Part shown: positions 3,893-62,200 of the stretch, piece after piece | Numbering within the stretch: position 1 is the stretch's first letter | How the letters are laid out: every line of letters starts with the position of its first letter | Assembly (NCBI RefSeq): GCF_963921235.1 | Contig: NC_086097.1 | Coordinates: 310,001-374,000 of the forward strand | DNA: 64,000 bases | Direction: 5' to 3' | Source: Mobula hypostoma | Taxonomy: Eukaryota | Position numbers and translations under genes: made by a program | The notes under the pieces: model-generated | Told to the model about the DNA's origin: nothing | What the model saw: only the letters and a program-made list of their open reading frames with translations | Databases searched by the model: none

Positions 3893-6800
3893 AGATCATG
3901 TAGCGGTGTGCTACACACAGCGCTAGAATAACCACACGGAGTCGGTGAGTTAGAGTTGCGATGAAAGAGATTTATTCAAACTTCGCGGCCTGCTTTGAAG
4001 CCTTCCTGTTCCCGCCCTCCCTGGGGCGGGACTGCTGTGGGGAATGCATATTCCCAGACCCTTTCCGCGCGCGGAATTTTCCCCCTGCTGGTGAAGATGG
4101 CCTGGCGCCCTTTTTGGGGCCGGCCCTCTGCCTGCGTGCGCTGTTGTGACCCGGTTCGTGTGTGCCAGAAAGTGGGTTGCCACAACCACCTTATACAGCG
4201 GGCAGCTGTTGGAGCTGGCAGCAGAGTGAGTGGGAGCAGAGTGCAGGGTTTTGGCTTCAGCGGTAAACGGGAATAGGCGAGAGCAAAGCACCAACTTTTT
4301 TTTCTCCCCCCGCCCTTTCGTGAATTGGACCGGACAGACAGGAACAGCAGGGCTCTCACAGCTAACGGTACGAGCATCTGCGCCAGGTGCACCGAGATGC
4401 GGCTCCTCAGAGACCATGTTAGGGATCTGGAGCTGCAGCTTGATGATCTGCTTATCAGGGAAAGTGAAGAAGTGATAGGAGCTACAGGGAGTAGTCATCC
4501 CTAGGCTACAGGGGTCAGAAAACTGGGTCACTGTCAAGAGAGGGAAGGGAAATGCCCGGATAGTGGAGAGCACACCTGTGGCTGTCCCCCTCAGCAACAA
4601 ATATCTTGTTCTGGATCCTGTTGAGGGGGATGACCTGACAGGGGATGCCCACGGTGACCGGATCTCTGGCACTGAGCCTGGCGCTGTTGTGCAGGAGAAG
4701 GAGGGAGAAGAGGAATGCGGTAGTCATAGGGGATTCCATAGTCAGGGGAACGGACAGGAGGTTCTGTGAGCCTGATAGAGATACCCGCATGGTGTGTTGC
4801 CTCCCAGGTGCCAGGGTACGGGATGTCTCGGATCGGGTTCTGAATATTCTGAAGGGGGAGGGCGAGCAGCCAGTTGTCTTGGTACATGTTGGTACCAATG
4901 ACATAGAGAGGACAAAGGAGGAGGTCCTGAAGAGAGATTTCTGGGAGTTAAGAAGGAAGCTGAGAAGCAGGACCTCCAGGGTAGTAATCTTGGGATTGCT
5001 ACCTGTGCCACGTGCTAGCGAGGGCAAGAATAGTAGGATCAGGCAGATGAATGCATGGTTGAGAGATTGGTGCAGGGGGCAGGGCTTCAGATTCTTGGAT
5101 AATTGGGATCTCTTCTGGGGGAAGTATGACCTGTTCAAAAAGGACAGGTTACACCTGAACCCGAAGGGGACCAATATCCTGGCGGGAATTTAATAGAGCT
5201 GTTAGGGAGGGTTTAAACTAATTTGGCAGGGGGATGGGAACCGGAATGACAGCGGAGGAAGGGGAAAACAGAAATAAATCTAAGATAGTGAGCAGTAAAG
5301 ATGTCAGGAAAGACAGGCAGGTGATGGGGCAAATTTGTAGCCATTGGGATGAGTTGCAGTGCAATAAAGTTGCAGTGAAATCAAAGCGAAAAGTACCAAA
5401 TACTGGTCTTGAGGTGTTATACTTAAATGCACGCAGCATAAGGAATAGGTGGATGATCTTGTCGTACAGCTACAGATTGGCAGGTATGATATTGTGGCCA
5501 TCACAGAGACCTGGCTAAAGGATGCATGTTTCTGGGAGTTGAACATCCAGGGATACACGGTGTATCGGAAGGATAGGAAGGTAGGCAGAGGGGAGGCGTG
5601 GCTTTATTGGTAAGAAATGATATTAAATCATTAGAAAGAGGTGATATAGGATCGGAAGGTGCAGAATCTTTATGGGTTGAGCTAAGAAATTACAGGGGTA
5701 AAAGGACCCTGTTGGCAGTTATTTATAGGCCTCCAAATAGCTGCAGGGATGTGGACTACAAATTACAACAGGAAATAGAAAAGGCTTGTCAGAAGGGCAG
5801 TGTTATGATAATTGTGGAGGATTTTAACATGCGAGTGGATTGGGAAAATCAGGTCGGCACTGGATCTCAAAAGAGAGAATTTGTAGAATGTCTGCAAGAT
5901 GGCTTTTTAGAACAGCATGTTGTTGAGCCCACTGGGGGATCGGCTGTACTGGATTGGGTATTGTGTAATGAACCGGAGGTGATTAGAGAGATTGAGATGA
6001 AGGAACCCTTAGGAGGCAGTGATCATAACATGATTGAGTGCACTGTGAAATTTGAAAAAGAGAAGCCGAAATCTAATGTGTCGGTATTTCAGTGGAGTAA
6101 AGGAAATTACAGTGGTATGAGAGAAGTCAAAGCCAAAGTTAAAGCAAAGGAGAGGGCATACAAGGAAGCAAAAATTAGTGGGAAGACGGAGGATTGGGAA
6201 GATTGCAATGTCAATCCGCTATTTAAGAAGGGGGCAAGGAAGCAAAAAGGAAATTATAGACCTGTTAGCTTGACATCGGTGGTTGGGAAGTTGTTGGAGT
6301 CGATTATCAAGGATGAGGTTACAGAGTACCTGGAGGCATATAACAAGATAGGCAGAACTCAGCATAGATTCCTTAAAGGAAAATCCTGCTTGACAAACCT
6401 ATTACAATTTTTTGAGGAAATTACAAGTAGGCTAGACAAGGGAGATGCAGTGGATGTTGTATATTTGGATTTTCGGAAGGCCTTTTACAAGGTGCCACAC
6501 ATGAGGCTACTTAACAAGATAAGAGCCCATGGAATTACGGGAAAGTTACATACGTGGGTAGAGCGTTGGCTGATTGGCAGGAAACAGAGACTGGGAATAA
6601 AGGGATCCTATTCTGGTTGGTTGTCAGCTACCAGTGGTGTTCCACAGGGGTCCGTGTTGGGGCTGCTTCTTTTTACATTGTACATCAACGATTTGGATTA
6701 TGGAATAGATTCAAAGATTCAAAAAACTTTATTGTAATTCAAACCGTACATCAGCTCTGCAGGGCAGAATGAGACAGCATTTCTCAGGAGCAGTGCAATC

Positions 6801-7802: not shown

Positions 7803-9710
7803 TAAGCTTTTAAAAATTTCCCGATCCTCTGTATTCTCACTAATTTTTGCTTCCTTGTATGCCCTCTCCTATGCTTTAACTTGGCTTTGACTTCTCCTGT
7901 CAGCCACGGTTGCATCCTTTTTCTATTCGAAAATTTCTTCTTTTTTGGAATATATCTGTCTTGCCCCTTCCTCACTTCTCGCATAAACTCCAGCCACTGC
8001 TGCTCTGCCATCCTTCCCACCAGTGTCCCTTTCCAGTCAACTTTGGCCAGTTCCTTTCTCATGCCATTGTAATTTCCTTTACTCCGGACACATTAGATTT
8101 CGGCTTCTCTTTTCCAAATTTCACAGTGAAGTCAATCATGTTATGATCACTGCCTCCTAAGGGTTCCTTGACCCCAATCTCTTTAATCACTTCTGGTTCA
8201 TTACGCAATACCCAATCCAGCACAGCCGATCCCCGAGTGGGCTCAACAACAAGCTGTTCTAAAAAGCCATCTTGCAGACATTCTACAAATTCTCTCTCTC
8301 GAGATCCAGTGCCGACCTGATTTTCCCAATCCACTCGCATGTTAAAATCCCCCACAATTATCATAACACTGCCATTCTGGCAAGCCTTTTCTATTTCCTG
8401 TTGTATTTTGTAGTCCACATCAATGCATCTGTTAGGAGGCCTGTATATAACTGCCATCAGAGTCCTTTTACCCCTGCGATTTCTTAGCTCAACCCATAAA
8501 GATTCTGCACCTTCCGATCCTATGTCACCTCTTTCTAATGATTTAATATAATTTCTTACCAATAAAACCACTCCACCCCTCTGCCTACCTGCCTATCCTT
8601 CCGATACACTGTGTATCCTTGGATGTTCAGCTCCCAGAGACATGCATCCTTTAGCCATGTCTCTGTGATGGCCACAATATCATACCTGCCAATCTGTAGC
8701 TGTACGACAAGATCATCCACCTTATTCCTTATGCTGCGTGCATTTAAGTATAACACCTTAAGTCCAGTATTTGGTACTTTTTGCTTTGATTGCACTGCAA
8801 CTTTATTGCACTGCAACTCATCCCAATGGCTGCAAGTTTGCCCCATCACCTGCCTGTCTTTCCTGACATCTTTATTGCTCACTATCTTAGATTTAATTCT
8901 GTTTTCCCCTTCGTCTGCTCTGTCATTCTGGTTCCCATCCCCCTGCCAAATTAGTTTAAACCCTCCCTAACAGCTCTATTAAACCTTCCCGCCAGGATAT
9001 TAGTCACCTTCGGGTTCAGGTGTAACCTGTCTTTTTTGAACAGGTCATACTTCCCCCAGAAGAGATCCCAATTATCCAAGAATCTGAAGCCCTGCCCCCT
9101 GCACCAACCTCCCAGCCATGGATTCATCTGCCTGATCCTACTATTCTTGCCCTCGCTAGCACGTGGCATAGGTAGCAATCCTGAGATTACTACCCTGGAG
9201 GTCCTGCTTCTTAGCTTCCTTCCTAACTCCCGGAAATCTCTCTTCAGGACCTCCTCCCTTTTCCTATCTATGTCATTGGTACCAACACGTACCAAGACAG
9301 CTGGCTGCTCGCCCTCTCCCTTCAGAATATTCTGGACCCGATCTGAGACATCCTGTGCCCTGGCACCTGGGAGGCAACACACCATGCGGGTATCTCTATC
9401 AGGCTCACCGAATCTCCTGTCTGATCCCCTATGACTACCGTATTCCTCTTCTCCCTCCTTCTCTCCTGTACAACAGCACCAGTCTCAGTGCCTGAGACCC
9501 GGTCACCGTGGCCGTCCCCTGTCAGGTCATCCCCCTGAACAGCATCCAAAACGATATACTTGTTGCTGAGAGGGGCAGCCACAGGGGTGCTCTCCACTAT
9601 CCTGGCATTTCCCTTCCCTCTCCTGACAGTCACCCAGTTTTCTGACCGCTGTAGCCTTGGGATGAGTACCTCCCTGTAGCTCCTGTCTATCATCTCCTCA
9701 CTCTCCCTAA

Positions 9711-9975: not shown

Positions 9976-10344
9976 GGTAGGTCATCAAGCTGCAGCTCCA
10001 GATCCCAACACGGTCTCTGAGGAGCTGCATCTCGGTGCACCTGATGCAGATGTGGCCATCAGGGAGGCTGGAGGTCTCCCAAGATTCCCACATCTGACAC
10101 CCTGAACAAAGCACTAACCCTGCAGACATACTACCTAATTCTACAGGAATGAAACAAGGAAAAATAAGTCTACTCACCCACTTACCTCACCAAACACATG
10201 AACACACAAATTAATTAATTAATTACAGTATAAGTATATTGAATAGATTAAAAATCATGCTAAAGTCATGGCAAAAATAGGAAAACAGATTATTATCTGA
10301 ATGGTGGCCGATTAGGAAAAGGGGAGGTGCAACGAGACCTGGGA

Positions 10345-11729: not shown

Positions 11730-12885
11730 ACTAATGTAGGAAGCAGAGAGGCTTCAAAAGGACTTAGACAGATTGGGAGACTGGGCAAAGAAATGCCAGA
11801 TGGAAAACAGTGTCGGGAAATGTATGGTCATGCACTTTTGGAGAAGAAATGAAATGGTAGACTATTTTCTAAATGGAGAGAAAATTTGAATAACTGAGAT
11901 GCAAAGAGACTTGGGCATCCTTTTGCAGGATTCCTTGGAGGTTAATTTGCAGCTTGAGTCAGTGTGAGGAAGTCAAATATGATGTTAGCATTCATATCAA
12001 GAGGACTAGAAGATACTGGCATTGTACCGGATGACTGGAAAATTGCAAATGTTACTCCGCTATTTAAGAAGGGTGGGAGGCAGCAGAAAGGAAGCTATAG
12101 ACCTGTCAGCCTCACATCAGTGGTTGGGAAGTTGTTGGAATTGATTGTTAGGGATGAGATTACAGAGTACCTGGAGGCACATGACAAGATAGGCCAAAGC
12201 CAGTAGGGTTTCCTGAAAGAAAAATCCTGCTTGACTAACCTGCTGCAACTTTTTGAGGAAATTACAAGCAGGGTAGACAAAGGAGATGCAGGAGATGTGT
12301 ACTAGGATTTTCAGATGGCATTTGACAAGGAGCCCCATATGAGGTTGCTCAGCAAGATATGAGCCCATGGAATTACAGGGAAGTTACGGGCATGGGTGGA
12401 GCATTGGCTGATACGCGGAAAACAGAGAGTGGGAATAAAGGGATTCTATTCTGGCTGGCTGCTGGTTAGCAGTGGAGTTCCACAGGGTTCGGTGTTGGGA
12501 CCGCTGCTTTGTATGATGTATGACAATGATTTGGGCTATGGGATTATTAGATTTGTGGCTAAATTTGCTGATGATACAAAGATAGGTGGAGGAGGGCCTA
12601 GTGTGGAGGAAACAGACAGCCTGCAGAGAAACTTAGATAATTTAGTGGAATGGGCAGAGTGGCAAATGAAATACAATGTTGGAAAGTGTATGGCCATACA
12701 CTTCGGTGGAAGAAATAAGCGGGTAGACATTGAGATGAGGAGATAATTCAAAGTGCAGAGATGCAAAGGGAGTTGGGAGTCCTTGTGCAAGATACCCTAA
12801 AGTTCAACCTCCAGCTTGAGTTGGTGGTGAAGAAGGCGAATGTAATGTTGGTATTCATTTCTAGAGGTATATAATATAAGAGCAG
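11730..12885 (+). mobile_element. Mosaic of CR1 ORF2 fragments
   Basis: [34 protein letters not shown]. Confidence 0.8.
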
Positions 12886-15800
12886 GGGGCAGGGATTCGG
12901 ATTTCTGGATCATTGGGACCTCTTTTGGGGCAGGTGTGACCTGTACAAAAAGGACGGGTTGCACTTGAATCCCAGGGGGACCAATATCCTGGTGGGGAGA
13001 TTTGCTAAGGCTACTGGGGAGAGTTTAAACTAGAATTGTTGGGGGGCAGGAACCGAACTGAAGTGACCGGGGAAGAGGCAGTTGGCTCACATATAGAGAA
13101 AGCTTGAAGACAGTGTGTGAGGGAGGATAGGCAGGTGATAGAGAAGGGACACGCTCAGACGGACGGTTTGAGATATGTCTATTTTAACGCAAGGGGTATT
13201 GTGAACAAAGCGGATGAGCTTAGAGCGTGGATCAGTACTTGGAGCTATGATGTGGTGGCCATTACAGAGACTTGGATGGCTCAGGGACAGGAATGGTTAC
13301 TTCAAGTGCTGAGTTTTAGATGTTTCAGAAAGGACAGGGAGGGAGGCAAAAGAGGTGGGGGCATGGCACTGTTGATCAGAGATAGTGTCACAGCTTCAGA
13401 AAAGGTGGACGTCATGGAGGGATTGTCTACGGAGTCTCTGTGGGTGGAGGTTAGGAACAGGAAGGGGGTCAATAACTTTTCTGGGTGTTTTTTATGGGCC
13501 GCCCAATAGTAACAATGATATCGAGGAGCAGATAGGGAATCAGATCCTGGAAAGGTGTAATAATAACAGAATTGTCGTGATGGGAGATTTTAGTTTCTCA
13601 AATATCAATTGGCATCTCCCGAAAGTGGGGGGTTTCAGATGGGGTGGAGTTTGTTAGGTGTGTTCAGGAAGGTTTCTTGACACAATATGTAGATAAGCCT
13701 ACAAGAGGAGAGACTGTACTTGATTTGGTGTTGGGAAATGAACCTGGTCAGGTGTCAGATCTCTCAGTGGGAGAGCATTTTGGAGATAGTGATCTAAATT
13801 CTATCTCCTTTACAATAGCATTGGAGAGAGATAGGAGCAGACAAGTTAGAAAAGCGTTTAATTGGAGTAAGGGGAATTATGAGGCTATCAGGCAGGAAAT
13901 TGGAAACTTAAATTTGGAACAGATGTTCTCAGGGAAAAGTATGGAAGAAATGTGGAAAATGTTCAGGGGATATTTGTGTGGAGTTCTGCGTAGGTATGTT
14001 CCAATGAGACAGGGAAGTTATGGTAGGGTACAGGAGCTGTGGTGTACAAAGGCTGTAATAAATCTAGTCAAGAAGAAAAGAAAAGCTTACGAAAGGTTCA
14101 GAGAGCTGGTTATGTTAGAGATCTAGAAGATTATCAGGCTAACAGGAAGGAGTTTAAAAAGGAAATTAGGAGAGCCAGAAGGGGCCATGAGATCATAAGA
14201 CAAAGGAGCAGAAGTAGGCCATTCGGCCCATCGAGTCTGCTCGGCCATTTTATCATGAGCTGATGCATTTTATCCTATTTAGTCCCACTGCCCCGCCTTC
14301 TCACCATAACCTTTGATGCCCTGGCTACTCAGATACCTATCAATCTCTGCTTTAAATACACCCAATGACTTGGCCTCCACTGCTGCCCGTGGCAACAAAT
14401 TCCATAGATTCACCACCCTCTGACTAAAAAAATTTCTTTGCATTTCTGTTCTGAAAGGGCACCCTTCAATCCTGAAGTACAATGAGAAGGCTTTGGCAGG
14501 CAGGATTCAGTAAGACCCCAAGGCATTCTACAAGTATGTGAAAAGCAAGAGGATAAGACATGAACGAATACACCTATCAAGTGTGACAGTGGGGAAAATG
14601 TGTATGGAACTGGAGGAAATAGCAGCAGTGCTTAATGAATACTTTACTACAGTATTCATTATGGAAAAGGATCTTGGTGATTGTAGTGATGACTTGCAGC
14701 AGACTGTAAAGCTTGAGCATGTAGATATTAAGGGAGAGGATGTGCTGCAACTTTTGGAAAGCATCAAGTTGGATAAGTTGCCGGGACCAGATGAGATGTA
14801 CCCCAGGCTACTGTAGGAGGCGAGGGAAGAGATTGCTGAGCCTCTGGCAATGATCTTTGAATCATCAATAGGGATGGGAGAGGTTCCAGAGGATTAGAGG
14901 GTTGCAGATATTGTTCCTTTATTCAAGAAAAGGAGTAGAGATAGCCCAGGAAATTATAGACCATTGATCTTACTTCAGTGGTTGATAAGTTAATGGAGAA
15001 GATCCTGAGAGGCAGGATTTATGAACATTTGGAGAAGCGTAATATGATTAGGAATAGTCAGCATGGCTTTGTCAAGGGCAGGTCGTGCTTTACGAGCCTG
15101 ATTGAAATTTTTGAGGATGTGACTAAACACATTAATGAAGGAAGAGCAGTAGATGTAGTATATATGGATTTAAGCAAGGCATTTGATAAGGTATCCCATG
15201 CAAGGCTTATTGAGAAAGTAAGGAGGATGGGATCCAAGGGGACATTGCTTTCTGGATCCAGAACTGGCTTGCCCACAAAAGGCAAAGAGTGGTTGTAGAC
15301 GGGTCATATTGTGCATGGAGGTCGGTGACCAGTGGTGTGCCTCAGGGATCTGTTCTGGGACCCCTTCTCTTCGTGATTTTTATAAATGAGCTGCATGAGG
15401 AAGTGGAGGGATGGGTTAGTAAGGTTGGGAATGTTGTGGATAGTGTGGAGGGCTGTCAGAGGTTACAGCAGGATATTGATAGGATGCAAAACTGGGCTGA
15501 GAAGTGGCAGGTGGAGTTCAACCCAGATCAGTGTGAAGTGGTTCATTCTGGTAGGTCAAATATGATGGCAGAATATAGTATTAATGGTAAGACGCTTGGC
15601 AGTGTGGAGAATCAGAGGAATCTTGGGATCCGAGTCCATAGTACGCTCAAAGCAGCTGCGCAGGTTGACTCTGGTTAAGAAGGCATACGGTGTATTGTCC
15701 TTCATTATTCGTGGAATTGAATTTAGGAGCTGAGAGGTAATGTTGCAGCTATATAGGACCCTGGTCAGACCCCACTTGGAGTACTGTGCTCAGTTCTGGT

Positions 15801-21243: not shown

Positions 21244-23180
21244 AGGTTTGCTAAAGCTGTTGGGGAGAGTTTAAACTAGAATTGCAGGTAGGTGGGAACC
21301 GAACTGAAGAGACAGAGGAAGGGATGGTTGGCTCACAGATGGAGAAAGCTTGAAGGCAGTGTGAGAGGGAGGATAGGCAGGTGACAGAAAAGGGATGCGC
21401 CCTGACTGATGGTTTGAGATGTGTCTATTTTAAAGCAAAAAACATCATGAACAAAGCGGATGAACTCAGAACGTGAATCAGTACTTGGATCTGTGATGCT
21501 GTGGCCATTACAGAGACTTGGCTGGCTTAGGGGCAGGAATGGTTACTTAGAGTACCAGGCTTCAGATGTTTCAGAAAGGACAGGGAGAGATGCAAAAGAG
21601 GTGGGGGCCGTGGCACTGCTGATCAGAGGTAGTGTCATGGCTGCAGAAAAGGAGGAAGTCATGGAGGGATTGTCTACTGAGTCTCTGGGTGGAAGTTAGG
21701 AACAGCAAGGGGTCAATAACTCTACTGGGTGTTCTTTTTTTGACCACCCAATAGTAACAGGGACATTGAGGTGCAGATAGGGAGACAAATTCTGTGGTGT
21801 ACAAAGACTGTTGAAAATCTAATCAAGAAGAAAAGAAAAGCTTACAAAAGGTTCAAAAAACTAGGTAATGATAGAGATCTAGAAGATTATAAGACTAGCA
21901 GGAAGGAGTTTAAGAATGAAATTAGGAAAGCTGGAAGGGGCCATGAGAAGACCTTGGTAAGCAGGATTAAGGAAAACCCCAAGGCATTCTACAAGTATGT
22001 GAAGAGCAAGAGGATAAGATGTGGAGAGAATAGGACCAATCAAGTGTGACAGTGGAAAAGTGTGTATGGAACCGGAGGAGATAGAGGAGGTACTTAATGA
22101 AAACCTTGCTTCAGTATTCACTATGGGAAAGGACCTTGGCGATTGTAGGGATGACTTACAGCGGACCGAAAAGCTTAAGCATACAGACATTAAGAAAGAG
22201 GACATGTTGCAGGTTTTGGAAAGCACCAAGTTGGATAAGTCACCGGGACCAGGCGAGATATACCCCAGGCTACTGTGGCAGGCGAGGGAGGAAATTGCTG
22301 AGCCTCTGACAATGATTTTTGCATCATCAATGAGGATGGGAGAGGTCCCGGAGGATTGGAGGTTTGCAGATGTTGTTCCCTTATTCAAGAAAGGGAGTAG
22401 AGATAGCCCAGGAAACTATAGACCAGTGAGTCTTACTTCAGTGGTTGGTAAGTTGATGGAGAACATCCTGAGCGGCAGGATTTATGAACATTTGGAGAAG
22501 CATAATATGATTAGGAAGAGTCAGCATGGCTTTGTCACAGGCAGGTCGTGCCTTATGAGCCTGATGAAATTTTTGAGGATGTGACATTGATTAAGATAGA
22601 GTAGTAGATGTAGTGTATATGGATTTCAGCAAGGCAGTCAATAAGGTACCCCATACAAGACTTATTGGGAAAGTAAGGAGGTATGGGATTCAAGGGGACA
22701 TTGCTTTGTGGATCCAGAACTGGCTTGCCCAAAGAAGGCAAAGGGTGGTTGTAGTCGGGTCATATTCTGCATGGAGATTGGTGACCAGTGGTGTGCCTCA
22801 GGGATCTGTTCTGGGACCTCTTCTCTTCGTGATTTTTATAAATGAGCTGCATGAGGAAGTGGAGGGATGGGTTAGTAATTTTGCTGATGACACAAAGGTT
22901 AGGGTTATTGTGGATCGTGTGGAGGAGGGCTGTCAGAGGTTACAGCAGGACATTGATAGGATGCAAAACTGGGCTGAGAAGTGGCAGGTGGAGTTCAACC
23001 CAGATCAGTGTGAAGTGGTTCATTCTGGTAGGTCAAATATGATGGCAGAATATAGTATTAATGGTAAGACTCTTGGCAGTGTGGAGGATCAGAGGGATCT
23101 TGGGGTCCGAGTCCATAGGACACTCAAAAGCTGCTATGCAGGTTGACTCTGTGGTTAAGAAGGCATATGGTGCCTTCATC
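21244..23180 (+). mobile_element. CR1 subfamily B copy with internal deletions
   Basis: ORF1 end GESLN*, APE start, RT ORFs at 22021-23146. Confidence 0.85.
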
Positions 23181-28600: not shown

Positions 28601-29065
28601 TTCAACATCTTCTGATCCTATGTCACATCTTTCTACTGATTTGATGCCATTCTTTAACAGTAGAGCCACACCACCCCTTCTGCCTACCGTCCTATCCCTC
28701 CAATATAACATATAAACTTGGACATACAGCTCCCAACTACAACCACCCTTCAGCCACGATTCAGTGATGGCCACAGCATTATACCTGGCAATCTGTAATA
28801 TTGCAACAAGATCAGCCAGCTGATTTCTTACACTACACGCATTTAGATACAGCACCTTCAGTTCCATATTTGCTATCCTTTCTGACTCTGCATCCCTAAT
28901 GATTTGATACTCAGCCTATTGGCTGCAACTAGGTCCCATCACCTGCCTGCCCTTCCTGACAATCTGCCTGCACGCTATCTTTACTTCTTTTTAACTATCC
29001 GTCCTTTCCTGAGTCCCTTCACTCTGGTTCCCAGTCCCCTGCCGAGTTAGTTTAAACCCTCCCCA
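25632..29065 (-). mobile_element. CR1 subfamily C ORF2 (25632-~28400) joined to the APE 5' part of an A-like subfamily (~28400-29065)
   Basis: 25632-28400 closely matches 33953-36720; abrupt switch of sequence type near 28400. Confidence 0.85.
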
Positions 29066-29345: not shown

Positions 29346-29714
29346 GTGATTACGGGAAATAGCGTGCAGGATGTGCAGAGGTGGGTAAGGGTTTGATTGT
29401 GGGGAATGGCATGCAGGGTGTGGCCAAGTGCGTGAGGGGTTGATAGTGGGGAGTGGTGTGCAGGATGTGGGGGAGTGGGTGAGGGTCTTCAATATCTGCA
29501 CTGAAGATTGTGATTTACCCACTTTCTGTGAGTAATCAAAATCAGAAATATCTAACTCACTTGATAAGTGTTCAAATATCCATCATTAAAGACATGTATG
29601 TGGATTTTCACTGTCTAAAAGCTCACACATGTTCAATATTTTGGAAGGAATATTGTTTGAAAAGGTTACAAAGCACAGCTGGATACGTTTGGCTGACTGT
29701 ATGTTTTATTCCAG

Positions 29715-35300: not shown

Positions 35301-38300
35301 CACAGACGTAAGGCTCAGTGGTCTATAATTACCTGGACTATCCCTACTACCTTTTTTGAACAAGGGGACAACATTCGTCTCCCTCCAATCCTCCGGTACC
35401 ATTCCCATGGACAACGAGGACATAAAGATCCTAGCCAGAGGCTCAGCAATCTCTTCCCTCGCCTCGTGGAGCAGCCTGGGGAATATTCCGTCAAGCCCCG
35501 GGGGCTTATCCTTCCTAATGTATTTTAACAACTCCAACACCTCCTCTCCCTTAATATCAACATGCTCCAGAACATCAACCTCACTCATATTGTACTCACC
35601 GTCATCAAGTTCCCTCTCAATGGTAAATACCGAAGAGAAGTATTCTTGAGGACCTCGCTCACTTGCACAGCCTCCAGGCACATCTTCCCACCTTTATCTT
35701 TAATCAGTCTTACCTTCACTCCTGTCATCCTTTTGTTCTTCACATAATTGAAGAATGCCTTGGGGATTTCCTTTACCCTGCTCGCCAAGGCTTTCTCATT
35801 CCCCCTTCTTGCTCTCCTCAGACCCTTCTTAAGCTCCTTTCTTGCTACCCTATATTCCTCAATAGACCCATCTGATCCTTGCTTCCTAAACCTCATGTAT
35901 GCTGCCTTCTTCCACCTGACTAGACTTTCCACCTCGCTTGTCACCCATGGTTCCTTTACCCTACCATTCTTTATCTTCCTCACTGGAACAAATTTATCCC
36001 TAGCATCCTGCAAGACATCCCTAAACATCGACCACATGTCCATAGTACATTTCCCTGGAAAAACATCATCCCAATTCACACCCGCAAGTTCTAGCCTTTT
36101 AACCTCATAATTTGCCCTTCTCCAAGTAAAAATTTCCCTGTCCTCTCTAATTCTATCCTTTTCCATGATAGTGTTAAATGCCAGGGAGCCGTGGTCACTG
36201 TCTCCCAGATGTTCACCCACTCAGAGATCTGTGACCTGACCCAGTTCGTTACCCAATACTAGATCTATTATGGCATTCCCCCTAGTTGGCCTGTCAACAT
36301 ACTGTGACAGGAATCCGTCCTGGACACACTTAACAAATGCTGCCCAGTCTAAAGCATTAGAACTAATCAGATGCCAATCAATATAAGGGAAGTTAAAGTC
36401 ACCCATGATAACAACACTGTTATTTTTGCACCTTTCCAAAATCTGCCTCCCAATCTGCTCCTCGGTATCTCTGCTGCTACCAGGGGGCCTATAGAATACC
36501 CCCAATAGAGTAACTGCTCCCTCCTTGTTCCTGACTTCCACCCATACTGACTCAAAAGAGGATCCTGCAACATTACCCACCCTTTCTGTAGCTGTAATAG
36601 TATCCCTTGCCAGTAATACCACCCCTCCTCCCCTTTCCCCCCTCTCTATCCCTTTTAAAGCTCGAAAATCCAGGAATATTGAGAATCCATTTCTGCCCTG
36701 GTGACAGCCAAGCCTTTGTAATGGCCACTGCATGATAGTTCCATGTATGTATCCAAGCTCTCAGTTCACCACCTTTGTTCCTGATGCTTCTTGCATTGAA
36801 GTGCACGCACTTTAGCCCTTCTACCTTACTACCTTTTAACGCTTTATTCTGCTTCTCTTTCCTCAAAGCCTCTTTCTCTGTTAGATCTGGCTTTAATCCA
36901 TGCACTATACTTGCAGTTCTCGCATGACCTTTATCCTCCTCCACCTCACTCTCTGCTCTAACACTGGTTCCCCTTCCCCTGCAAATCCAGTTTAAACCCC
37001 CCGGAGCAGCACTAACAAACCTTCCCGCAAGGATGTTAGTCCCCCTCCTGTTCAATGCAACCCGTCCCGTTGGAACAGGTCCCACCTTCCCTGGAACAAG
37101 GCCCAATTGTCCAGAAACATGAAGCCCTCCTTCATGTACCAACTCCTTAGCCACGTATTTAGCTGTATTATCTTCTTATTTCTAGCCTCACTAGCACATG
37201 GCATGGGTAGCAATCCTGAGATTACAACCCTGGAGGTCCTGTCCTTCAACTTTGCACCTAACTCCCTAAACTCTCTTTGTAGGACCTCCTCCTCAGTCCT
37301 ATCCATGTCATTGGTCCCTACATGGACCAAAACATCTGGCTGCTTACCCTCCTACATGAGAATACTGAGAACTCGATACGAGATATCGCGGACCCTGGCA
37401 CCAGGGAGGCAACAGACCATCTGCAATTCTTGATCGCTCCCATAGAACCTCTTATTTGTCCCCCTAACTATTAAATCCCCTATCACTACTGCTGTCCTCT
37501 TTTCCCTCCTTCCTTGCTGAGCTGAGGGTCCCGTCTCGGTGCCAGAGACGTGACCACTACAACTTGTCCCTGGTAGGTTATCCCCACCAACAGTATCCAA
37601 AACAGTATTCTTATTAATGATAGGAACGACCACAAGGGTGCTCTGCTCTTTCTGTCTATTCCACTTCCCTCTTCTGATAGTCACCCAGCTACCTGCCTCC
37701 TGACTTTTAGGGGTGACTGTCTCCCTGAAACTCCTGTCTATTTCTATTTCTGCTTCTGCCTCATGAATGATCTGAAGTTCATCCAGCTCCAGCTCCAGTT
37801 CCCTAACTCAGTTTGTCAGGAGCTGCAGCTGGATGCACCTTTTACAGGTGTAGTCATCAGAGACAATTGTACTCGCCCTGACTTCCCACATCCTGCAATC
37901 TGAGCACTCGACTGCCCTAACTGCTGCCTCCATTACCTACTCCTAAGTTAATTAGATTAATTAAAGGAACTTACCTGGCCTTACCTCACTGGGAGTAAGC
38001 TCATCCTTAACCCCTGCTCGCTGAAGCCTCTCGAGCCAAAGCCTTCCCACTCTGTCTCCCACTACTCAGTTGCACGCTCTGTTAATCTACTCGCTTTTTA
38101 AGCTCTCCTGCTGTCTCGCAGGCCGACCTTCACGCGCTTGTGCAGTTGTGCCCCGTTCAAACTGCTGAAGAAATCAAGGTAGGACATACACAGTAAATGT
38201 TAGGGTACTGAGGTGTGCGGAGTAATAAGGAGATCTGGGAGTTCAGATACATAATTCCCTGAAAGTGGCGTCACAGGTAGACAGGATTGTAAAGAAGGCT

Positions 38301-42812: not shown

Positions 42813-44209
42813 CAGTGATCGAGGAACGACGGCGCAGGCGCGTGGATGTCAGCAAGTTAGACCGATGGGAAGAGTATAAAAGGCGATCATTTTTTCTTTG
42901 GCGGTAAGATCGAGGAACGACTGCGGAGGCATGTGGACGTCAGCGAGTTAGACCGGCTGGAAGAGTATAAAAAGAAGACAGCTTTATAGAGCGTGTGCCA
43001 GAGGAGCAGGCAACTGAGTAGTGGTAGACAGAGTAAGAGGGCTTTGGCTCAATGGGGCTTTGGCAATAATGGGTCAAGATGAGGTACCTGTGAAGAATAG
43101 AAACAAAAAGTATGTCTGTGAGACTTGTGTTCTGTACTGGGTGTCAGATGTGGGAAGTCCAGGAGACTCCCAGCCTCCTGGACAGCCACATTTATGCCAG
43201 GTGCGTTGAGCTGCAGCTCCTTCGGGACCGGGTTAGGGACCTGGAGCTGCAGCTCGATGATCTTCATCTGGTTAGCGAAAGCGAGGAGGTGATAGAGAGG
43301 AGCAAATAAGCAAGTAGTCACACCGGGGCCTCGAGAGACAGGTAAGTGGGTAACAATCAGGAGAGGGAAGGACAAGAGTCAGATACTAGAGAATACCCCT
43401 GTGGCTGTCCCCCTTAACAGTAAGTACTCCTGTTTGAGTACTGTTTGGGGGGGATGACCTACCTGAGGGAAGCAACAGTGGCCACGCCTCTGGCACAGAG
43501 TCTGGTCCCTGTGGCTCAGAAGGGTAAGGAAAGGAAGAAGGCATCAGTATTAGAGAACTCAAAAGTTAGGGGTCAGACAGGCGATTCTGTGGACGCAGGA
43601 AAGAAACACGGATGGTAGTTTGCCTCCCAGGTGCCAGGGTCTGGGATGTTTCTGATTGTGCCAACGATATTCTGAAGTGGGAAAGTGAACAGCCAAAGGT
43701 CGTGGTACATATTAGTACCAACGACGTAGGTAGGAAATGGGAGGAAGTCCTGAAAACAGACAACAGAGAGTTATGAAGGAGGTCGAGAAGCAGGACCTCA
43801 AAGGTAGTAATCTCGGGATTACTGCCTGTGCCATGTGACAGTGAGTATAGAAATAGAGTGAGGTGGAGGATAAATGCGTGGCTGAGGGAATGGAGCATGG
43901 GGCAGGGATTCAGATTTCTGGATCATTGACCTCTTTTGGGGCAGGCAGGACAGGTTGCATTTGAATCTGAGGGGGACCAATATCCTGGCAGGGAGGTTTG
44001 CTAAGGCTATTGGGGTCAGTTTAAAATAGAGTTTCTGGGGGGGTGGGAACTCAAGTGAAGAGACAGAGGAAGTGGCTGTTGGCTCACAAATAGAGAAAGC
44101 TTGGAGACTTTGCGAAAGGGAGGATAGCCAGGTGATAGACAAGGGATGTGCTCAGACCGATGGTTTGAGATGTGTCTATTTTAATGCAAGAAGCATCATG
44201 AACAAAGCG

Positions 44210-50221: not shown

Positions 50222-51814
50222 GTGAGTATATCTGAAATTCTAAAAAAATTACTCTGATTCTTACGGTTTGCTATCATGTTCTGGAATAAATATTAACTCT
50301 GTTGTAACCAGTGATAAATTTTGCCCCTATGTTTCTGGATTTGATTCTCGTGAGAAAGTTCACATTGGCATGGGAAATAGGAGCTGTTGGAGAAGGAGCA
50401 TTGAGTACTTTCAGACACATCATCTGCATGTTAGAGGACTCTTAAGAGTATTGCAGCCCAAATTTGTGCTGGCCTATTTTTCTGCCTAGTCCCATCTACC
50501 CGTACTGGGCTGTAGTCCCATCTACATACACTTCTGATCCATGTACTTATACAAATCCGTGTCCACCACCTCCACTGGTAGCTCTTTCCACACTCACTAT
50601 CCTTTGAATGAAGAAATTCCCTTCAGGTTTCCCTTAAACATTTCACTTTCTACCCTTAATCCATGACCACCAGTTTTAATCTCTCCTATCCTCAGTGGAA
50701 TAAGCCTGCTTGCATTTATCCAATTTATACACCTCTCAAATCTCCTCTCAATATTCTTCCTCTAGCAAGGTAACCAGAACTACACACAGTATTCCCTGTA
50801 GGGCCTTCAACTTCAACATAGCATACCAAATCGTGTACTTAGCATTCTGATTTATGAAGATCATCGTGCTAAAACCTTTCTTTATCACCCTCTCAACCTG
50901 AGGGTAGGTTGGCCAGGATTGTTCAGGTGGGTTTAAGCTAAATTTCTGGGGGATCGGAACTAGATTGTTTATGCTCAAGATGAGGTAGTTGGTTTACAGA
51001 CAGAGGCAACGTGTACTGAGACTGCGAACAAGGAAAGGCAATTGAGAAGGCAAAATTCCAATCAACTGATGAGTTGCAACATAAAATATGGACAAAATTG
51101 AAAAAGATGAATACAGGACTGAAGGTGTTGTATTTGAATGCGCGCAGTATGCTGTGTAAGATGGATGAACTTGTAGCACAGTTACAGATTGGCATGTATG
51201 ATGCTGTAGGCATTGCTGAATCATGGTTGAAAGAAGATTATAGCTGGGAGCTTAATATCCAAGGTTACGCATTGTATCAAAAGGACAGGCAAGAGGCAGA
51301 GTGGATGGCATTGCTCTATTCGTAAAAAGTGAAATCAAATCATTAGAAAGAGATGGCATAGGCTCGGAAGATGTTGAATCATTGTGGATAGGTTTGAATT
51401 GCTTGTCATTTGAAGAGCATTCAATAACTCTGGGCCTGTATTCGCTATAATTCAGAAGAATGAGGGGTGACCTCATTGAAACCTATCGAATGGTAAAAGT
51501 CTTTGATGGAGTGGATGTGGAGAGGATGTTTTCTCTGGTGGGGGAGTCTAAGACCAGAGGACACAGCCTCAGAATAGAGTGTCCTTTGAGAATGGAGGTG
51601 AGAAGGAATTTCTTTAGCCAAAGAGTGGTGAATCTGTGGAATTCTTTGCCACAGGCAGTTGTGGAGGCAGAGGTTGATAGATTCTCGATTGGTCGGGGTG
51701 TGAAGGGATACAGGGAGAAGGCAGACGATTGGGGCTGAGAGGAAAAATGGATCAGCCATGATAAAATGGTGGAGCAGACTCTTTGGGCCAAATGGCCTAA
51801 TTCTGCTCCTATAT

Positions 51815-56670: not shown

Positions 56671-59260
56671 AAATATAAATATGTAAGATGGCTTATGTAC
56701 ATTGATTATAAAGTGAAGGTTGGCACAAGAGTCGTGGTACGTAAAGTGACTCTGACAAAAAAATGAGAAAGTAGTGGTGGTTGGAGGTGTGGGATAGGTT
56801 AGTGGGTGGAGGTTTTGATCAGGCTTGGTTCTTGGGGAAAGTAACTGTGTTGAATTTGGTGGCCCTGGTGTGAATGCTACATAGCCGGCTCCCTGATGAG
56901 AGTGGGACAAACAGGCTGGGTGGGTTTCTTCATGATATTTCTGGCATCTCTCTGTATATATATCCTTGGTGGGTAGGCTGATGCCAGTGATGCACAGGGC
57001 AGTTTTGACTACCTGTTGTGGAGCCTTACTGTCCGCTGCAGTGCAGTTTTCATAACAGGCATGGTGCAGCATGTTAAGGTGCTCTCCACTGTGCTTCTAC
57101 AGAAGGATGTGCCTAATGCTGTGCATAGTCCAGTTCTCTTCAGGCTTCTCAGAAAGCAGAGGTGTTGGTTAACTTTCTTGATTATGTAGAATATGTTCTA
57201 GGATGATGAGAGGTTGTGCAAGATGTGCACTCCCAGGAGCTTGAAACTGCTTGCAGTGCCACCAAAAGTAGTAAGTAGTTCGAGTTCAACTGAAGTCAAC
57301 AACTATTTCCTTTGATTTGTTGACATAGTGGAAGAGGTTATTTGCCTGGCACCAGTCCTCAAGCTCTTCCATCTCCTGTCTATAGCCCATTCCCCACACG
57401 AAACCACCACGGTGAGCTTCACAGCTCTACAGGTGAGAAGACAGCTGAAACGTCTCAACCCAAGCAAGGCTGCAGGACCGGATGGTGTCAGTACCAGGGT
57501 GCTCAAAGCCTGTGCCCCTCAGCTGTGTGGAGTAGTTCGCCATGTATTCAACCTGAGCCTCTGGAGGGTTCCTGTATTGTGGAAGACATCCTGCCTCGTC
57601 CCTGTTCCGAAGACGCCGCACCCCAGCGGCCTCAATGACTACAGACCAGTGGCATTGACCTCCCATATCATGAAGACCCTGGAGAGACTTGTTCTGGAGC
57701 TGCTCTGGCCTATGGTCAGGCCACACTTAGATCCCCTCCAGTTCGCCTACCAGCCCCGACTAGGAGTTGATGCCATCATCTTCCTGCGGAACCGTGTCTA
57801 CGCCCACCTAGACAAGCCAGCGAGCACTGTGAAGGTCATGTTGTTTGATTTCTCCAGTGCGTTCAACACCATCCGCCCTGCTCTGCTGGGGGAGAAACTG
57901 ACAGCGATGCAGGTGGATGCTTCCCTGGTATCATGGATTCTTGATTACCTGACTGGCAGACCACAGTACGTGTGCTTGCAACACTGGGGCTCCACAGGGG
58001 ACTGTCTTGTCTCCCTTTCTCTTCACCATTTACACCTCGGACTTCAACTACTGTACAGAGTTTTTTCATCTTCAGAAGTTTTCTGATGACTCTGCCATAG
58101 TTGGATGCATCAGCAAGGGAGATGAGGCTGAGTACAGGGCTACAGTAGGAAACTTTGTCACATGGTGTGAGCAGAATGATCTGCAGCTTATTGTGAAAAA
58201 GACTAAGGAGCTGGTGGTAGACCTGAGGAGAGCTAAGGTACCGGTGACCCCTGTTTCCATCCAGGGGGTCAGTGTGGACATGGTGGAGGATTACAAATAC
58301 CTGGGGATACGAATTGACAATAAACTGGACTGGTCAAAGAACACTGAGGCTGTCTACAAGAAGGGTCAGAGCCGTCTGTATTTCCTGAGGAGACTGAGGT
58401 CCTTTAACATCTGCTGAGGATGTTCTACGAGTCTGTGGTGGCCAGTGCTATCATGTTTGCTGTTGTGTGCTGGGGCAGCAGGCTGAGGGTAGCAGACACC
58501 AACAGAATCAACAAACTCATTCGTAAGGCCAATGATGTTGTGGGGATGGAACTGGACTCTCCGACAGTGGTGTCTGAAAAGAGGATGCTGTCTAAGTTGC
58601 ATGCCATCTTGGTCATTGTCTCCCATCCACTACATAATGTACTGGGTGGGCACAGGAGTACATTCAGCCAGAGACTCATTCCACCGAGATGCAGCACTGA
58701 GCGTGATAGGAAGTCATTCCTGCCTCTGGCCATCAAACTTGTGGCTAAAGGGATCAGGGGGTATGGAGGGAAGGCTGGTGCAGGGTTCTGAGTTGGATGG
58801 TCAGCCATGATCATACTGAATGGCGGTGCAGGTTCCGGCCTGCATACTGAATGGCCTACTCCTGCACCTATTTACTATGTCTCTCTATGTTCTAAACTTT
58901 ACAACTCCTGCCTTGGAGGGTCAGACACCCTGAGCCAATAGGCTGGTCCTAGACTTATTTCATAATTTACTGGCATAATTTACATGTTACTATTTAACTG
59001 TTTATGGTTCTATTACTATTTATTATTTATGGAACAACTGTAACAAAAACCAATTTCCCCCGGGATTAATAAAGTATGACTATGACTATCTCATAGTTGT
59101 TGGTAGCAGTGAGAGATTAAAAATATGTGGTACCAAAAGAGATAGCAGAGATGTTGTGCCATTCGGGTGTTTGGCCATGCAGTTGTGGATCAGCACAGTG
59201 TACGTCAGTGGGCTCAGCAAACAGTCCGGGGGGGGTGCACTTGTTTTGAGGATGATGGGG
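56671..59260 (-). mobile_element. Older Rex/Babar-like LINE remnant (56671-~57389 and ~59089-59260) split by a younger Rex1
   Basis: ORF 56647-57072 NCTAADSKAPQQVVKTA resembles a Rex/Babar C-terminus. Confidence 0.55.
57390..59090 (+). mobile_element. Rex1/Babar LINE RT and 3' end, with a CR1 tail inserted at 58741-58893 (TSD AAACTT)
   Basis: KAAGPDG, DYRPVALTS..MKTLERLV, DPLQFAY, DFSSAFNTI, FSDD; tail aataaagtatgactatgact. Confidence 0.92.
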
Positions 59261-59269
59261 AGGGAAGAG

Positions 59270-62200
59270 CACCACAGTGACCGGGTCTCTGGCACTGATC
59301 CTGGCGCTGTTGTGCAGGAGGGAAGGAGGGAGAAGAGGAATGCGGTAGTCATAGGGGATTCCATAGTCAGGGGAACAGACAGGAGATTCTGTGAGCCTAA
59401 TAGAGATACCCGCATGGTGTGTTGCCTCCCAGGTGCCAGGGTACGGGATGTCTCGGATCGGGTCCTGAATATTTTGAAGGGAGAGGGCAAGCAGTCAGTT
59501 GTCTTGATACATGTTGGTACCAATGACATAGATAGGATAAGGGAGGAGGTCCTGAAGAGAGATTTCTGGGAGTTAGGAAGGAAGCTGAGAAGCAGGACCT
59601 CCAGGATAGTAATCTCGGGATTGTTACCTGTGCCACGTGCTAGCGAGGGCAAGAATAGTAGGATCAGGCAGATGAATACGTGGCTGAGAGATTGGTGCAG
59701 GGGGCAAGGCTTCAGATTCTTGGATCATTGGGATCTCTTCTGGGGGAAGTATGACCTGTTCAAAATGGACAGGTTACACCTGAACCTGAAGGGGACCAAT
59801 ATCCTGGCGGGAAGGTTTAATAGAGCTGTTAGGGAGGGTTTAAACTAATTTGGCAGGGGGATGGGAACCAGAATGACAGAGCAGAGGAAGGGGAAAACAG
59901 AAATAAATCTTAGATAGTGAGCAGTAAAGATGTCAGGAAAGACAGGCAGGTGATGGGGCAAATTTGTAGCCATTGGGATGAGTTGCAGTGCAATAAAGTT
60001 GCAGTGAAATCAAAGCGAAAAGTACCAAATACTGGTCTTAAGGTGTTATACTTAAATGCACGCAGCATAAGGAATAAGGTGGATGATCTTGTCGCACAGC
60101 TACAGATTGGCAGGTATGATATTGTGGCCATCACTGAGGCGTGGCTAAAGGATGCATGTCTCTGGGAGCTGAACGTCCAAGGATACATGATGTATCAGAA
60201 GGATAGGAAGGTAGGCAGAGGGGGGGGCGTGGCTTTATTGGTAAGAAATGATATTAAATCATTAGAAAGAGGTGATATAGGATCGTAGTGTGCAGAATCT
60301 TTGTGGATTGATCTAAGAAATCGCAGGGGTAAAAGGACCCTGATGGCAGTTGTATATAGGCCTCCAAACAGCTGCAGTGATGTGGACTACAAATTACAAC
60401 AGGAAATAGAAAAGGCTTGTCAGAAGGGCAGCGTTATGATAATTGTGGGGATTTTAACATGCGAGTGGATTGGAAAATCAGGTCGGCACTGGATCTCAAG
60501 AGAGAGAGTTTGTAGAATGTCTGCGAGATGGCTTTTTAGAACAGCTTGTTGTTGAGCCCACTAGGGGATCGGCTGTACTAGATTGGGTATTGTGTAATGA
60601 ACCGGAGGTGATAGAGAGATTGAGGTGAAGGAACCCTTAGGAGGCAGTGATCATAACATGATTGAGTTCACTGTGAAATTTGAAAAAGAGAAGCCGAAAT
60701 CTGATGTGTCGGTATTTCAGTGGACTAAAGGAAATTATAGTGGCATGAGAGAGGAACTGGCCAAAGTTGACTGGAAAGGGACACTGGCGGGAAGGACGAC
60801 AGAGCAGCAGTGGCTGGAGTTTATGCGAGAAGTGAGGAAGGTGCAAGACAGGTATATTCCAAAAAAGAAGAAATTTTTGAATGGAAGAAGGATGCAACTG
60901 TGGCTGATAAGAGAAGTCAAAGCCAAAGTTAAAGCAAAGGTGAGAGCATACAAGGAAGTAAAAATTAGTGGAAAGACAGAGGATTGGGGAAGTTTTTAAA
61001 AGCTTACTAAAGGAAACTAAGAAGGTCATTAAGAGGGAAAAGATTAACTATGAAAGGAAGCGAGCAAATAATATCAAAGAGGATACTAAAAGCTTTTTCA
61101 AGTATATAAAGAGTAAAAGACAGGTGAGAGTAGATATAGGACCGATAGAAAATGATGCTGGAGAAATTGTAATGGGAGATAAGGAGATGGCGGAGGAACT
61201 GAACGAGTATTTTGCATCAGTCTTCACTGAGGAAGACATCAGCAGGATATCGGACACTCAAGGGTGGCAAGGAAGCGAAGTGTGTGCAGTCACAATTACG
61301 ACAGAGAAAGTACTCAGGAAGCTGAATAGTCTAAAGGTTGATAAATCTCCTGGACCAGATGAAATGCACCCTCATATTCTGAAGGAAGTAGCTGTGGCGA
61401 TTGCAGAGGCATTAGCAACGATCTTTCAAAAGTCGATAGATTCTGGCATGGTTCCGGAGGACTGGAAGATTGCAAATGTCACTTCGCTATTTAAAAAGGG
61501 GTCAAGGAAGCAAAAAGGAAATTATAGACCTGTTAGCTTGACATCGGTGGTTGGGAAGTTGTTGGAGTCGATTGTCAAGGATGAGGTTACAGAGTACCTG
61601 GAGGCATATGACAAGATAGGCAGAACTCAGCATGGATTCCTTAAAGGAAAATCCTGCCTGACAAACCTATTACAATTTTTTGAGGAAATTACAAGTAGGC
61701 TAGACAAGGGAGATGCAGTGGATGTTGTATATTTGGATTTTCGGAAGGCCTTTGACAAGGTGCCACACATGAGGCACATGAGGCAAGGTAAGAGCCCATG
61801 GAATTACGGGAAAGTTACATACATGGATAGAGCGTTGGCTGATTGGCAGGAAACAGAGAGTGGGAATAAAGAGATCCTATTCTGGTTGTCTGCCGGTTAC
61901 CAGTGGTGTTCCACAGGGGTCCGTGTTGGGGCCGCTTCTTTTTACGTTGTACATCAACAGTTTGGATTATGGAATAGATATCTTTGTGGCTAAGTTTGCT
62001 GATGATACGAAGATAGGTGGAGGGTCCGGTAAGTGTTGAGGAAACAGGGAGTCGGCAGAGAGACTTGGATAGATTGGAAGAATGGGCAAAGAAGTGATAA
62101 ATGAAATACAGTGTTGGAAAGTGTGTGGTTATGCACTTTGGCAGAAGAAATAAATGGGCAGACTGTTATTTAAATGGGGAGAGAATTCAAAGTTCTGAGA

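Follow-up and report, generated by a model that had tools for sequence, protein, structure and literature searches.

The stretch analysed here, referred to as the window, comprises 64,000 nucleotides of Mobula hypostoma (NCBI RefSeq assembly GCF_963921235.1, contig NC_086097.1, positions 310,001 to 374,000 of the forward strand; positions below are those of the window). It is packed with copies of CR1-type long interspersed nuclear elements (LINEs). In the copy under study, which belongs to subfamily A, the first of its open reading frames (ORF1; 58979..59848, plus strand, 289 codons stop-to-stop, taken as frame 0) carries a GDSL/SGNH esterase domain. Its C-terminal 202 residues (59240–59845) match Pfam Lipase_GDSL_2 (E 2.1e-13), and the esterase part matches 4c1b, the solved esterase of the ORF1 protein (ORF1p) of the zebrafish LINE ZfL2-1 (E 3.6e-30). 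Of the named relatives of this ORF1p, the best comes from the electric ray Narcine bancroftii, an uncharacterised protein with 74 % identity. Downstream, an ORF at 59914..60288 belongs to an apurinic-type endonuclease (EN) that begins near 60037, and it is followed by a reverse transcriptase (RT; Pfam RVT_1, 60962–61993). Homologues of the N-terminus of this second reading frame (ORF2) carry PF03372, and near-identical junctions bear the label LINE/CR1 in a published consensus library (PMC13343379). Judged from its sequence, the host element of the junction is a CR1-clade LINE with an esterase ORF1 and an endonuclease/RT ORF2.

ORF1 ends in the codons GGT TTA AAC TAA (59837–59848). These contain the canonical slippery heptamer T_TTA_AAC (59839–59845) in X_XXY_YYZ phase with ORF1, within a longer slippery run G_GGT_TTA_AAC (59836..59845), and the ORF1 stop TAA (59846..59848) lies directly 3′ of the heptamer. 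The −1 frame, which reads TTT AAA CTA ATT TGG from 59839, is in phase with 59914..60288 and is the ORF2 frame, running from the heptamer into the endonuclease (59839..60288, plus strand). Upstream, a −1-frame TAG at 59830–59832 leaves two sense codons before the heptamer. Among the copies, the ORF2 frame opens 2–5 codons before the heptamer and ORF1 ends directly after it, so any change of frame must fall within ~16 nt. Both the phased heptamer before the stop and the barely heptamer-long overlap had been described in an earlier, sequence-only reading of this DNA, and the sequence and ORFs bear them out; the trans-frame product that it gave as FKLIWQ is corrected here to ...GLN-LIWQ.... In copy 59839 the −1 frame is interrupted by a TAG at 59911–59913, and the first in-frame ATG of ORF2 is at 59953–59955. 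Past the ORF1 stop lies a conserved purine-rich tract, GGCAGGGGGATGGGAACC (59852..59869, plus strand), which is a candidate linear frameshift stimulator.

A tblastn search of the window with ORF1 and endonuclease queries located nine junctions between an ORF1 end and an endonuclease start, exactly the set that had been listed before. All nine carry the motif. TTTAAAC is exact at 5212+, 8960−, 13024+, 21270+, 29056−, 36996− and 59839+, and one base is changed at 44020+ (TTTAAAA) and at 50932+ (TTTAAGC), the two variants already remarked upon. The heptamer is followed by TAA or TAG in eight of the nine. The copies represent five lineages: A (5212, 8960 and 59839), B (13024, 21270 and 44020), C (36996), D (29056) and E (50932). 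ORF2 is in the −1 frame relative to ORF1 in 8960, 59839, 13024, 21270 and 29056, that is, in five of the nine and in subfamilies A, B and D. The claim that the phased heptamer recurs in divergent subfamilies is upheld by the seven exact junctions, with the qualification that ORF2 lies in frame 0 at 36996(−), where TGG replaces the stop, and also at 5212, 44020 and 50932.

The sole uninterrupted junction in the window is the subfamily A copy on the minus strand (8556..8966), in which the heptamer (8954–8960) is followed by 134 open codons of the −1 frame, as had been seen for this antisense copy. At the A heptamer 5212..5218 (plus strand), a downstream 2-nt deletion puts ORF2 in frame 0. Two of the B junctions, at 13024..13107 (plus strand; AGT TTA AAC TAG) and 21270..21353 (plus strand; 5′ truncation ~30 nt before the heptamer), reach a −1-frame TGA, at 13105–13107 and 21351–21353 respectively; in the former the frame is open for 27 codons. 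At the third, 44020..44026 (plus strand), one nucleotide inserted into the G-run brings ORF2 into frame 0, and TGG stands where the others have TGA. The D heptamer (29050..29056, minus strand) lies in a short 5′ fragment with ORF2 in the −1 frame and two linker stops. The C junction (36576..37175, minus strand) has an intact heptamer at 36990–36996 within a 200-codon open frame, and the mutated E heptamer (50932..50938, plus strand) belongs to a decayed copy. An ATG for ORF2 is not conserved: in A and D it lies 38 codons after the heptamer, where B has ATA or ACA, and in E it lies elsewhere.

Over both strands of the window there are 24 occurrences of TTTAAAC, compared with 9.17 ± 3.19 in shuffled sequences, and 0/100 shuffles reach 24. 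The junctions account for the excess: the seven exact ones contribute fourteen of the 24, as GTTTAAAC is palindromic and each is counted on either strand. This 8-nt palindrome is made of the heptamer and the preceding G (59838–59845, and at other junctions); it is probably incidental, since in other vertebrates the G is not conserved (GCT, CTT, GAT and TAT precede). In CR1 coding stretches, canonical slippery heptamers occupy 8 of 1419 in-phase positions. Two of the eight are the ORF1 ends themselves (G_GGT_TTA, overlapping T_TTA_AAC), leaving 6 in ~1417 elsewhere. On this background, a slippery heptamer would fall by chance within the 16-nt overlap, which has three in-phase positions, in ~1 % of cases. 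Codon usage in the element (GGT 18 % of Gly, TTA 23 % of Leu, AAC 27 % of Asn) likewise yields ~1 % for the spelling xxT TTA AAC given Gly-Leu-Asn.

Mean pairwise identity across the five subfamilies is 0.94 in the heptamer block, compared with 0.60–0.74 in the last 45 nt of ORF1 and 0.46 at +10..+16. Between A and B, 5 of the 15 same-residue codons just upstream differ synonymously and none of the differences falls in xxT TTA AAC; in the catalytic DxLHLN motif, for instance, TTA/TTG, CTG/TTG and AAC/AAT are seen. When linker differences between A and D were sorted by codon position, the profile was flat (30/37/37), as it was in the endonuclease too, which makes this comparison uninformative.

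A survey of the CR1 group from 2026 (PMC13343379) lists ~1000 family consensuses in its Supplementary Table 2, and the first 400 nt of each were covered here. A search with TTTAAACTA gave 23 matches, of which 17, by our own assignment, are esterase-ORF1/EN junctions. These derive from 11 species: alligator, saltwater crocodile, bowfin, bullfrog, elephant shark (a chimaera), stingray, sawfish, catshark, spiny dogfish, coelacanth and halosaur, the last with an element of the Crack family. The 17 junctions read NNT TTA AAC TAR. The codon before TTA is GCT, CTT, GAT, GGT, TGT or TAT, and its last base is T in 17/17. Survey of consensus junctions had been suggested in the sequence-only reading, which had also described the leading T as kept and the leucine codon as always TTA; both features recur here, with T in 9/9 window junctions as well.

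The TTTAAACTA search fixed the first T, and variants were tested with A, C or G for this T, with TTG, CTG, CTT, CTC or CTA for TTA, and with AAT for AAC. The first-base controls ATTAAACTA, CTTAAACTA and GTTAAACTA gave 3, 0 and 7 matches, with no junction among the eight matches listed. The synonymous spellings gave 2 matches for TCTGAACTA, 5 for TTTGAACTA, 2 for TCTTAACTA, 0 for TCTCAACTA, 4 for TCTAAACTA, 16 for TTTAAATTA (10 listed), 5 for TTTAAATAA and 5 for TTTAAATAG. The sole junction among the synonymous matches listed is an eagle consensus found with TTTAAATAG, GCT TTA AAT AGA, which looks like a 1-nt deletion. Apart from this consensus, the synonymous variation of the heptamer that had been named as telling against a slip site was not found at junctions among the matches listed. 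In the opposite direction, a search by the downstream motif GGGGATGGG led to seven CR1 junctions, all with the heptamer and one of them cut inside it. A G-rich core, GGGGGATGGG, follows the stop in alligator, chimaera, sawfish and catshark consensuses alike. By hand translation, the −1 frame is open from the heptamer for 52 codons into LNCIYFNARG in the catshark ScyCan_CR1-1a, and for 70 codons into LKALYLNARS / LKALYLNARSIRNKIDEL in the dogfish SquAca_CR1-6c.

Protein ends point the same way. With the esterase part as query, phmmer returned 2895 matches among 1.84 billion cluster representatives, and C-termini were read in the best 150. Of these, 52 end in Leu-Asn, 9 in Gln-Gly-Asn and 1 in Lys-Asn, and 68 end in Asn overall; named Leu-Asn-ending relatives come from electric ray, lizard and frog. 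Eleven different residues precede Leu-Asn among the 52 proteins. A residue incompatible with an NNU codon (K, E, Q, M or W) stands there in 1/52, against 34/104 at the two preceding positions (Fisher 3e-6, a value that overstates the evidence, the Leu-Asn proteins being related and not independent). Gln-Gly-Asn is compatible with G_GGA_AAC and Lys-Asn with A_AAA_AAC; if these spellings are in fact used, other CR1-group clades could carry different slippery heptamers at the same place, a suggestion drawn from protein ends. In the Gln-Gly-Asn proteins (P0042, P0051, P0053, P0056, P0058, P0066, P0068, P0118 and P0123), Gln always precedes Gly. A further ending, Phe-Phe-x, is seen in P0057, P0063 and P0125 and could spell U_UUU_UUN.

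Taken with the window, these data support the view that the heptamer, its phase and the adjacent stop have been kept across jawed vertebrates far beyond what the ORF1 protein would need. TTA and AAC are minority codons here, and their apparent resistance to synonymous change over several hundred million years is best read as the signature expected of tandem tRNA slippage. Programmed −1 frameshifting at U_UUA_AAC is the best reading of the junction and a probable one, though not proven; it is favoured because the heptamer is canonical and in phase, because T stands before TTA whatever residue is encoded, and because TTA and AAC resist synonymous change. A minority of ribosomes translating ORF1 would slip back one base on U_UUA_AAC, extended in most subfamilies to G_GGU_UUA_AAC, at the moment when the P and A sites hold the final two codons of ORF1 and the stop is about to enter the A site. 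The shifted ribosomes would then read the −1 frame through a linker of ~50–75 codons into the endonuclease and reverse transcriptase, yielding small amounts of a Gag-Pol-like fusion of ORF1p to the ORF2 protein (ORF2p), which would be the form in which ORF2p functions. Most ribosomes would terminate and give ORF1p. The Gag-Pol-like fusion proposed by the sequence-only reading gains from the conservation of the heptamer and from the open frames of subfamily A, the youngest, and of two shark consensuses; the protein itself stays at the level of a prediction.

Slippage may be stimulated by the adjacent stop, by the G-rich tract 6–24 nt downstream, or by both. In the window the heptamer is followed by a G-run and then GGGAAC, of which GGAAC is invariant in 9/9 copies; the distance from the heptamer to the start of GGGAAC is 17 nt in seven of the nine, 18 nt in 44020 and 16 nt in 50932. 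A stimulatory role of this tract is suggested by its position and conservation. A low rate due to the heptamer by itself could suffice, as a LINE needs very little ORF2p. A G-quadruplex was considered as a general stimulator and rejected, since of the nine copies just the three of subfamily A have a predicted two-layer G-quadruplex.

Several observations weigh against frameshifting. The −1 frame is fully open from heptamer into endonuclease in just one of the nine window copies (8960), and ORF2 is in frame 0 in four (5212, 44020, 36996 and 50932). The frame-0 copies are indel-bearing or single decayed copies. Random indels would be expected to move ORF2 both ways, and there are four frame-0 copies and no +1 copies (p ~0.06 on four events). 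In copy 36996 of subfamily C, a 2-nt deletion together with TGG places the endonuclease in the ORF1 frame; this could represent a natural lineage with in-frame fusion of ORF1 and ORF2, or two chance lesions. No long protein matching the in-frame C junction was found in a protein database search, and the in-frame fusion therefore rests on one decayed copy.

The −1-frame TGA of subfamily B, 27 codons after the heptamer and shared by 13024 and 21270, is a further difficulty. The two copies are independent insertions, since their 5′ truncation points differ. The three B copies are about equally distant from each other, and because of this star-like relation the TGA was most likely present in the source of the subfamily. 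The linker stops had been put down to decay; the TGAs, at one site in independent insertions, are more than decay private to each copy. A sense codon stands at this site in 44020 (TGG), in the related protein P0001 (Gly) and in a stingray B-like consensus (GG), so that the TGA is not ancestral to the family as a whole; it may mark a defective source mobilised in trans. Queried with the N-terminus of B-type ORF2, the protein database gave 9 matches, too small a number for counting copies. When contigs of four runs were aligned to 8700–13300, none of the 40 variants listed, of 890, fell in the heptamers or at the TGA. The repeats of this interval are extremely abundant in the four organisms concerned, with 153,182–211,086 contigs per run aligning at ≥80 % in X1, X5, X8 and X10. 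Words of subfamily A are common, at 0.44–0.66, to runs of five organisms.

Among the published consensuses, SquAca_CR1-17a has a −1-frame TAA nine codons after the heptamer, and the frame is lost in several others, whose sequences contain many uncertain, lower-case letters. The linker, whose openness had been proposed as a check, is thus open in 8960, ScyCan_CR1-1a and SquAca_CR1-6c and closed in two of three B copies and in SquAca_CR1-17a. Catshark CR1-1a and dogfish CR1-6c and CR1-17a also show UAAUG with the ATG in the ORF2 frame (AAC TAA TG..). No stem-loop, stable or covarying, is predicted 5–9 nt downstream: RNAalifold finds only a 5-bp GGUUU/GAACC helix (−0.97 kcal/mol) downstream of the heptamer, the folding of the 113 nt that follow is no more stable than that of shuffled sequences (z −0.05 for A, −0.13 for B, +0.20 for C and −1.36 for D), and there is no Rfam match at the junction. 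Pseudoknots were outside these folding tests, which agree with the earlier impression of a G-rich tract without clear structure. ORF1 relatives grouped with ZfL2-1 (L2-type) end in ...TLHTI, ...TLRTI or similar and not in Leu-Asn, and to our knowledge ZfL2-1, a zebrafish L2 element, is the one experimentally active relative. Lastly, database searches found no esterase-endonuclease or trans-frame protein. None of the 13 longer ORF1 relatives carries an endonuclease after the esterase, the named ones being chimeric gene models. No CR1 was found in viral, metagenome or prokaryote genome contigs, where only the bacterial locus L001 and four bacterial lipase loci were returned.

The principal competing explanation is termination-coupled reinitiation in the −1 frame at or near the ORF1 stop, from an AUG where there is one and otherwise from a non-AUG codon, so that ORF2p would be a protein of its own; tethering or restart would then be the function of the G-rich tract and of the conserved block at the stop. 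We regard this as a rather unlikely alternative. It would account for the UAAUG of catshark CR1-1a and dogfish CR1-6c and CR1-17a, has published precedents among LINEs in the stop-start coupling of SART1 and the AUG-independent reinitiation of L1, agrees with the lack of a predicted frameshift-type structure downstream, and, with a restart further downstream, would tolerate the subfamily B TGA. A stop-overlapping AUG is, however, missing in the window, where the codon is ATT, GAA, GAT, ACT, GAG or AAT, and there is none in the crocodilian, frog, bowfin and chimaera consensuses; nor is a downstream structure of the SART1 type predicted. A conserved reinitiation AUG had been named as evidence that would count against frameshifting: no conserved ORF2 AUG exists in the window, but shark families have UAAUG, which fits reinitiation. 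Reinitiation leaves unexplained that the conserved bases form a canonical heptamer in phase, the T before TTA, found in 17/17 published and 9/9 window junctions across seven different codons, and the resistance of TTA and AAC to synonymous change. Frameshifting and reinitiation may also coexist in sharks.

Two further explanations were weighed. If the block from GTTTAAAC to GGGAAC were an RNA- or protein-binding site or a dimerisation palindrome, ORF2 being reached by internal or leaky initiation, the match to a slippery heptamer would be incidental. The perfect palindrome GTTTAAAC, the GGAAC 17 nt downstream that is as invariant as the heptamer, and the presence of GGTTTAAACTA and GGGAAACTA in the 5′ untranslated regions (UTRs) of dogfish CR1-18 and CR1-3 would all suit such a site. 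In SquAca_CR1-18 and SquAca_CR1-3, GGTTTAAACTA and then GGGAAACTA lie within the first 130 nt, in an AACTA-rich 5′ UTR upstream of the ORF1 ATG. This explanation is nevertheless judged improbable: the first G of the palindrome varies, with GCT, CTT, GAT and TAT giving CTTTAAAC, TTTTAAAC or ATTTAAAC, the conserved part is exactly the seven X_XXY_YYZ-phased bases plus the stop, and the −1 frame opens just before the heptamer into an ORF2 with no conserved start. Chance combined with shared ancestry, in which an ancestral ORF1 happened to end Leu-Asn as TTA AAC and the copies have diverged too little, is the least credible and very improbable. The window copies are all related and dead copies decay neutrally, so that identity within a subfamily carries little weight; yet a complete change of linker and flanking codons has left the motif in place from cartilaginous fish to crocodilians, nearby synonymous sites vary, and the spelling xxT TTA AAC given Gly-Leu-Asn is expected at only ~1 %. 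Two other candidates were rejected outright: a mini-intron GT...CAG, by eye, being ~19 nt long (too short) with CAG in only 6/9 copies, and transcriptional slippage, for which the T3A3 run is established to be too short.

Other features of the window lie around these junctions. Two C-like CR1 copies, at 25712–28399 and 34048–36722, are in direct orientation 8.3 kb apart and share 89–99 % identity over ~2.7 kb. Junction 29056 sits in a separate A/D-like 5′ fragment adjoining the first of them, and just upstream of this fragment a 47-nt G-rich unit is tandemly repeated in 2.8 copies (29354–29485). Between the A and B copies, a 383-codon open frame on the minus strand (10223–11374) has RT-like motifs (..YIDDYIG..) and belongs to a different retroelement.

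How ORF2 is translated from bicistronic LINE RNA is a long-standing question, to which L1 and SART1 give different and incompletely understood answers. The CR1 group comprises the main LINEs of fish, amphibians, reptiles and birds, dominant outside mammals, and no account of how its ORF2 is expressed was found in the searchable literature. A conserved heptamer at the ORF1 stop offers a concrete and cheaply testable hypothesis. If frameshifting does occur, Gag-Pol-style expression would be extended to vertebrate non-LTR (long terminal repeat) retrotransposons, a new protein species, an esterase-endonuclease-RT fusion, would be predicted, and a site working without obvious RNA structure would be added to those known. 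CR1 annotation, in which ORF2 is as a matter of routine given no start, would also gain a rule. A stronger version, put forward only tentatively and rather doubtful as it stands, is that jawed-vertebrate CR1-group ORF2p is made solely as the ORF1p–ORF2p fusion, with the adjacent stop and the linear GGGGGAUGGG/GGGAAC element as stimulators and no pseudoknot. The G-rich element may then be bound by ORF1p or by a host protein that binds G-runs. Were this so, the frameshift rate would set the ratio of ORF1p to ORF2p, and cis-preference would be explained by a physical tie of ORF2p to the assemblies that ORF1p forms on the RNA encoding it.

The idea of frameshifting at overlapping LINE ORFs is, in general terms, old. 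The literature covered here includes the Atkins 2016 recoding review, the 2026 survey of CR1, a paper on 2A sequences in LINEs and one on the structure of the ZfL2-1 esterase. In the searchable literature, whose coverage does not extend to the older chicken, turtle and fugu CR1 papers, neither a slippery heptamer nor a −1 frameshift was found to be reported for CR1. In the parts covered, the Atkins 2016 review lists no case of the coronavirus or retroviral type for non-LTR retrotransposons. It does include Drosophila HeT-A, a non-LTR retrotransposon that needs a ribosomal frameshift within gag. Unlike in CR1, the shift in this insect telomeric element is inside gag and not at the junction of ORF1 and RT, and the signal is different.

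Among LINEs, the closest comparisons are elements in which reinitiation has been described. Human L1 ORF2 is translated by an unconventional termination/reinitiation (Alisch et al. 2006, as described in citing passages). L1 resembles CR1 in its bicistronic RNA, in AUG-independent expression of ORF2 and in a low yield of ORF2p. It differs in that its ORFs are split by a stop-containing spacer, with no overlap or heptamer, and in that its ORF1p is an RNA chaperone and not an esterase. SART1, a Bombyx LINE of the R1 clade, uses UAAUG stop-start coupling (Kojima et al. 2005, as summarised in PMC3708506). Like CR1, SART1 is a LINE with ORF2 in the −1 frame and an overlap of a few bases, and some shark CR1 families share its UAAUG. 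Unlike most CR1 lineages and all window copies, it has the AUG, and it needs a downstream structure of a kind not predicted in CR1. We know of no slippery heptamer in SART1.

Protein-stimulated frameshifting, as with nsp1beta/PCBP and the C-rich motif of PRRSV or with cardiovirus 2A, depends on a linear or distant 3′ element. Stimulators 12–15 nt downstream that act with trans-acting factors are described by Atkins 2016. CR1 is similar in having conserved unstructured sequence ~10–24 nt 3′ of the slip site; it is different in that its tract is G-rich (GGGGGAUGGG/GGGAAC) and its role here is a matter of inference from position. With coronavirus, arterivirus and retroviral −1 frameshifting the CR1 junction has in common the heptamer U_UUA_AAC itself, in the same X_XXY_YYZ phase. 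The likeness extends to a polymerase ORF in the −1 frame with no start of its own, and to the fusion of structural protein and polymerase at low ratio that would be expected. The viral sites have a pseudoknot or stem-loop 5–9 nt downstream, whereas the CR1 site has no predicted downstream structure and its host is a non-LTR retrotransposon. In the plant RNA viruses BYDV and RCNMV (a luteovirus and a dianthovirus), the heptamers are G_GGU_UUU and G_GAU_UUU and the stimulators are structured or long-range, unlike in CR1; as in CR1, the 0-frame stop follows directly after the slippery heptamer and the overlap is minimal.

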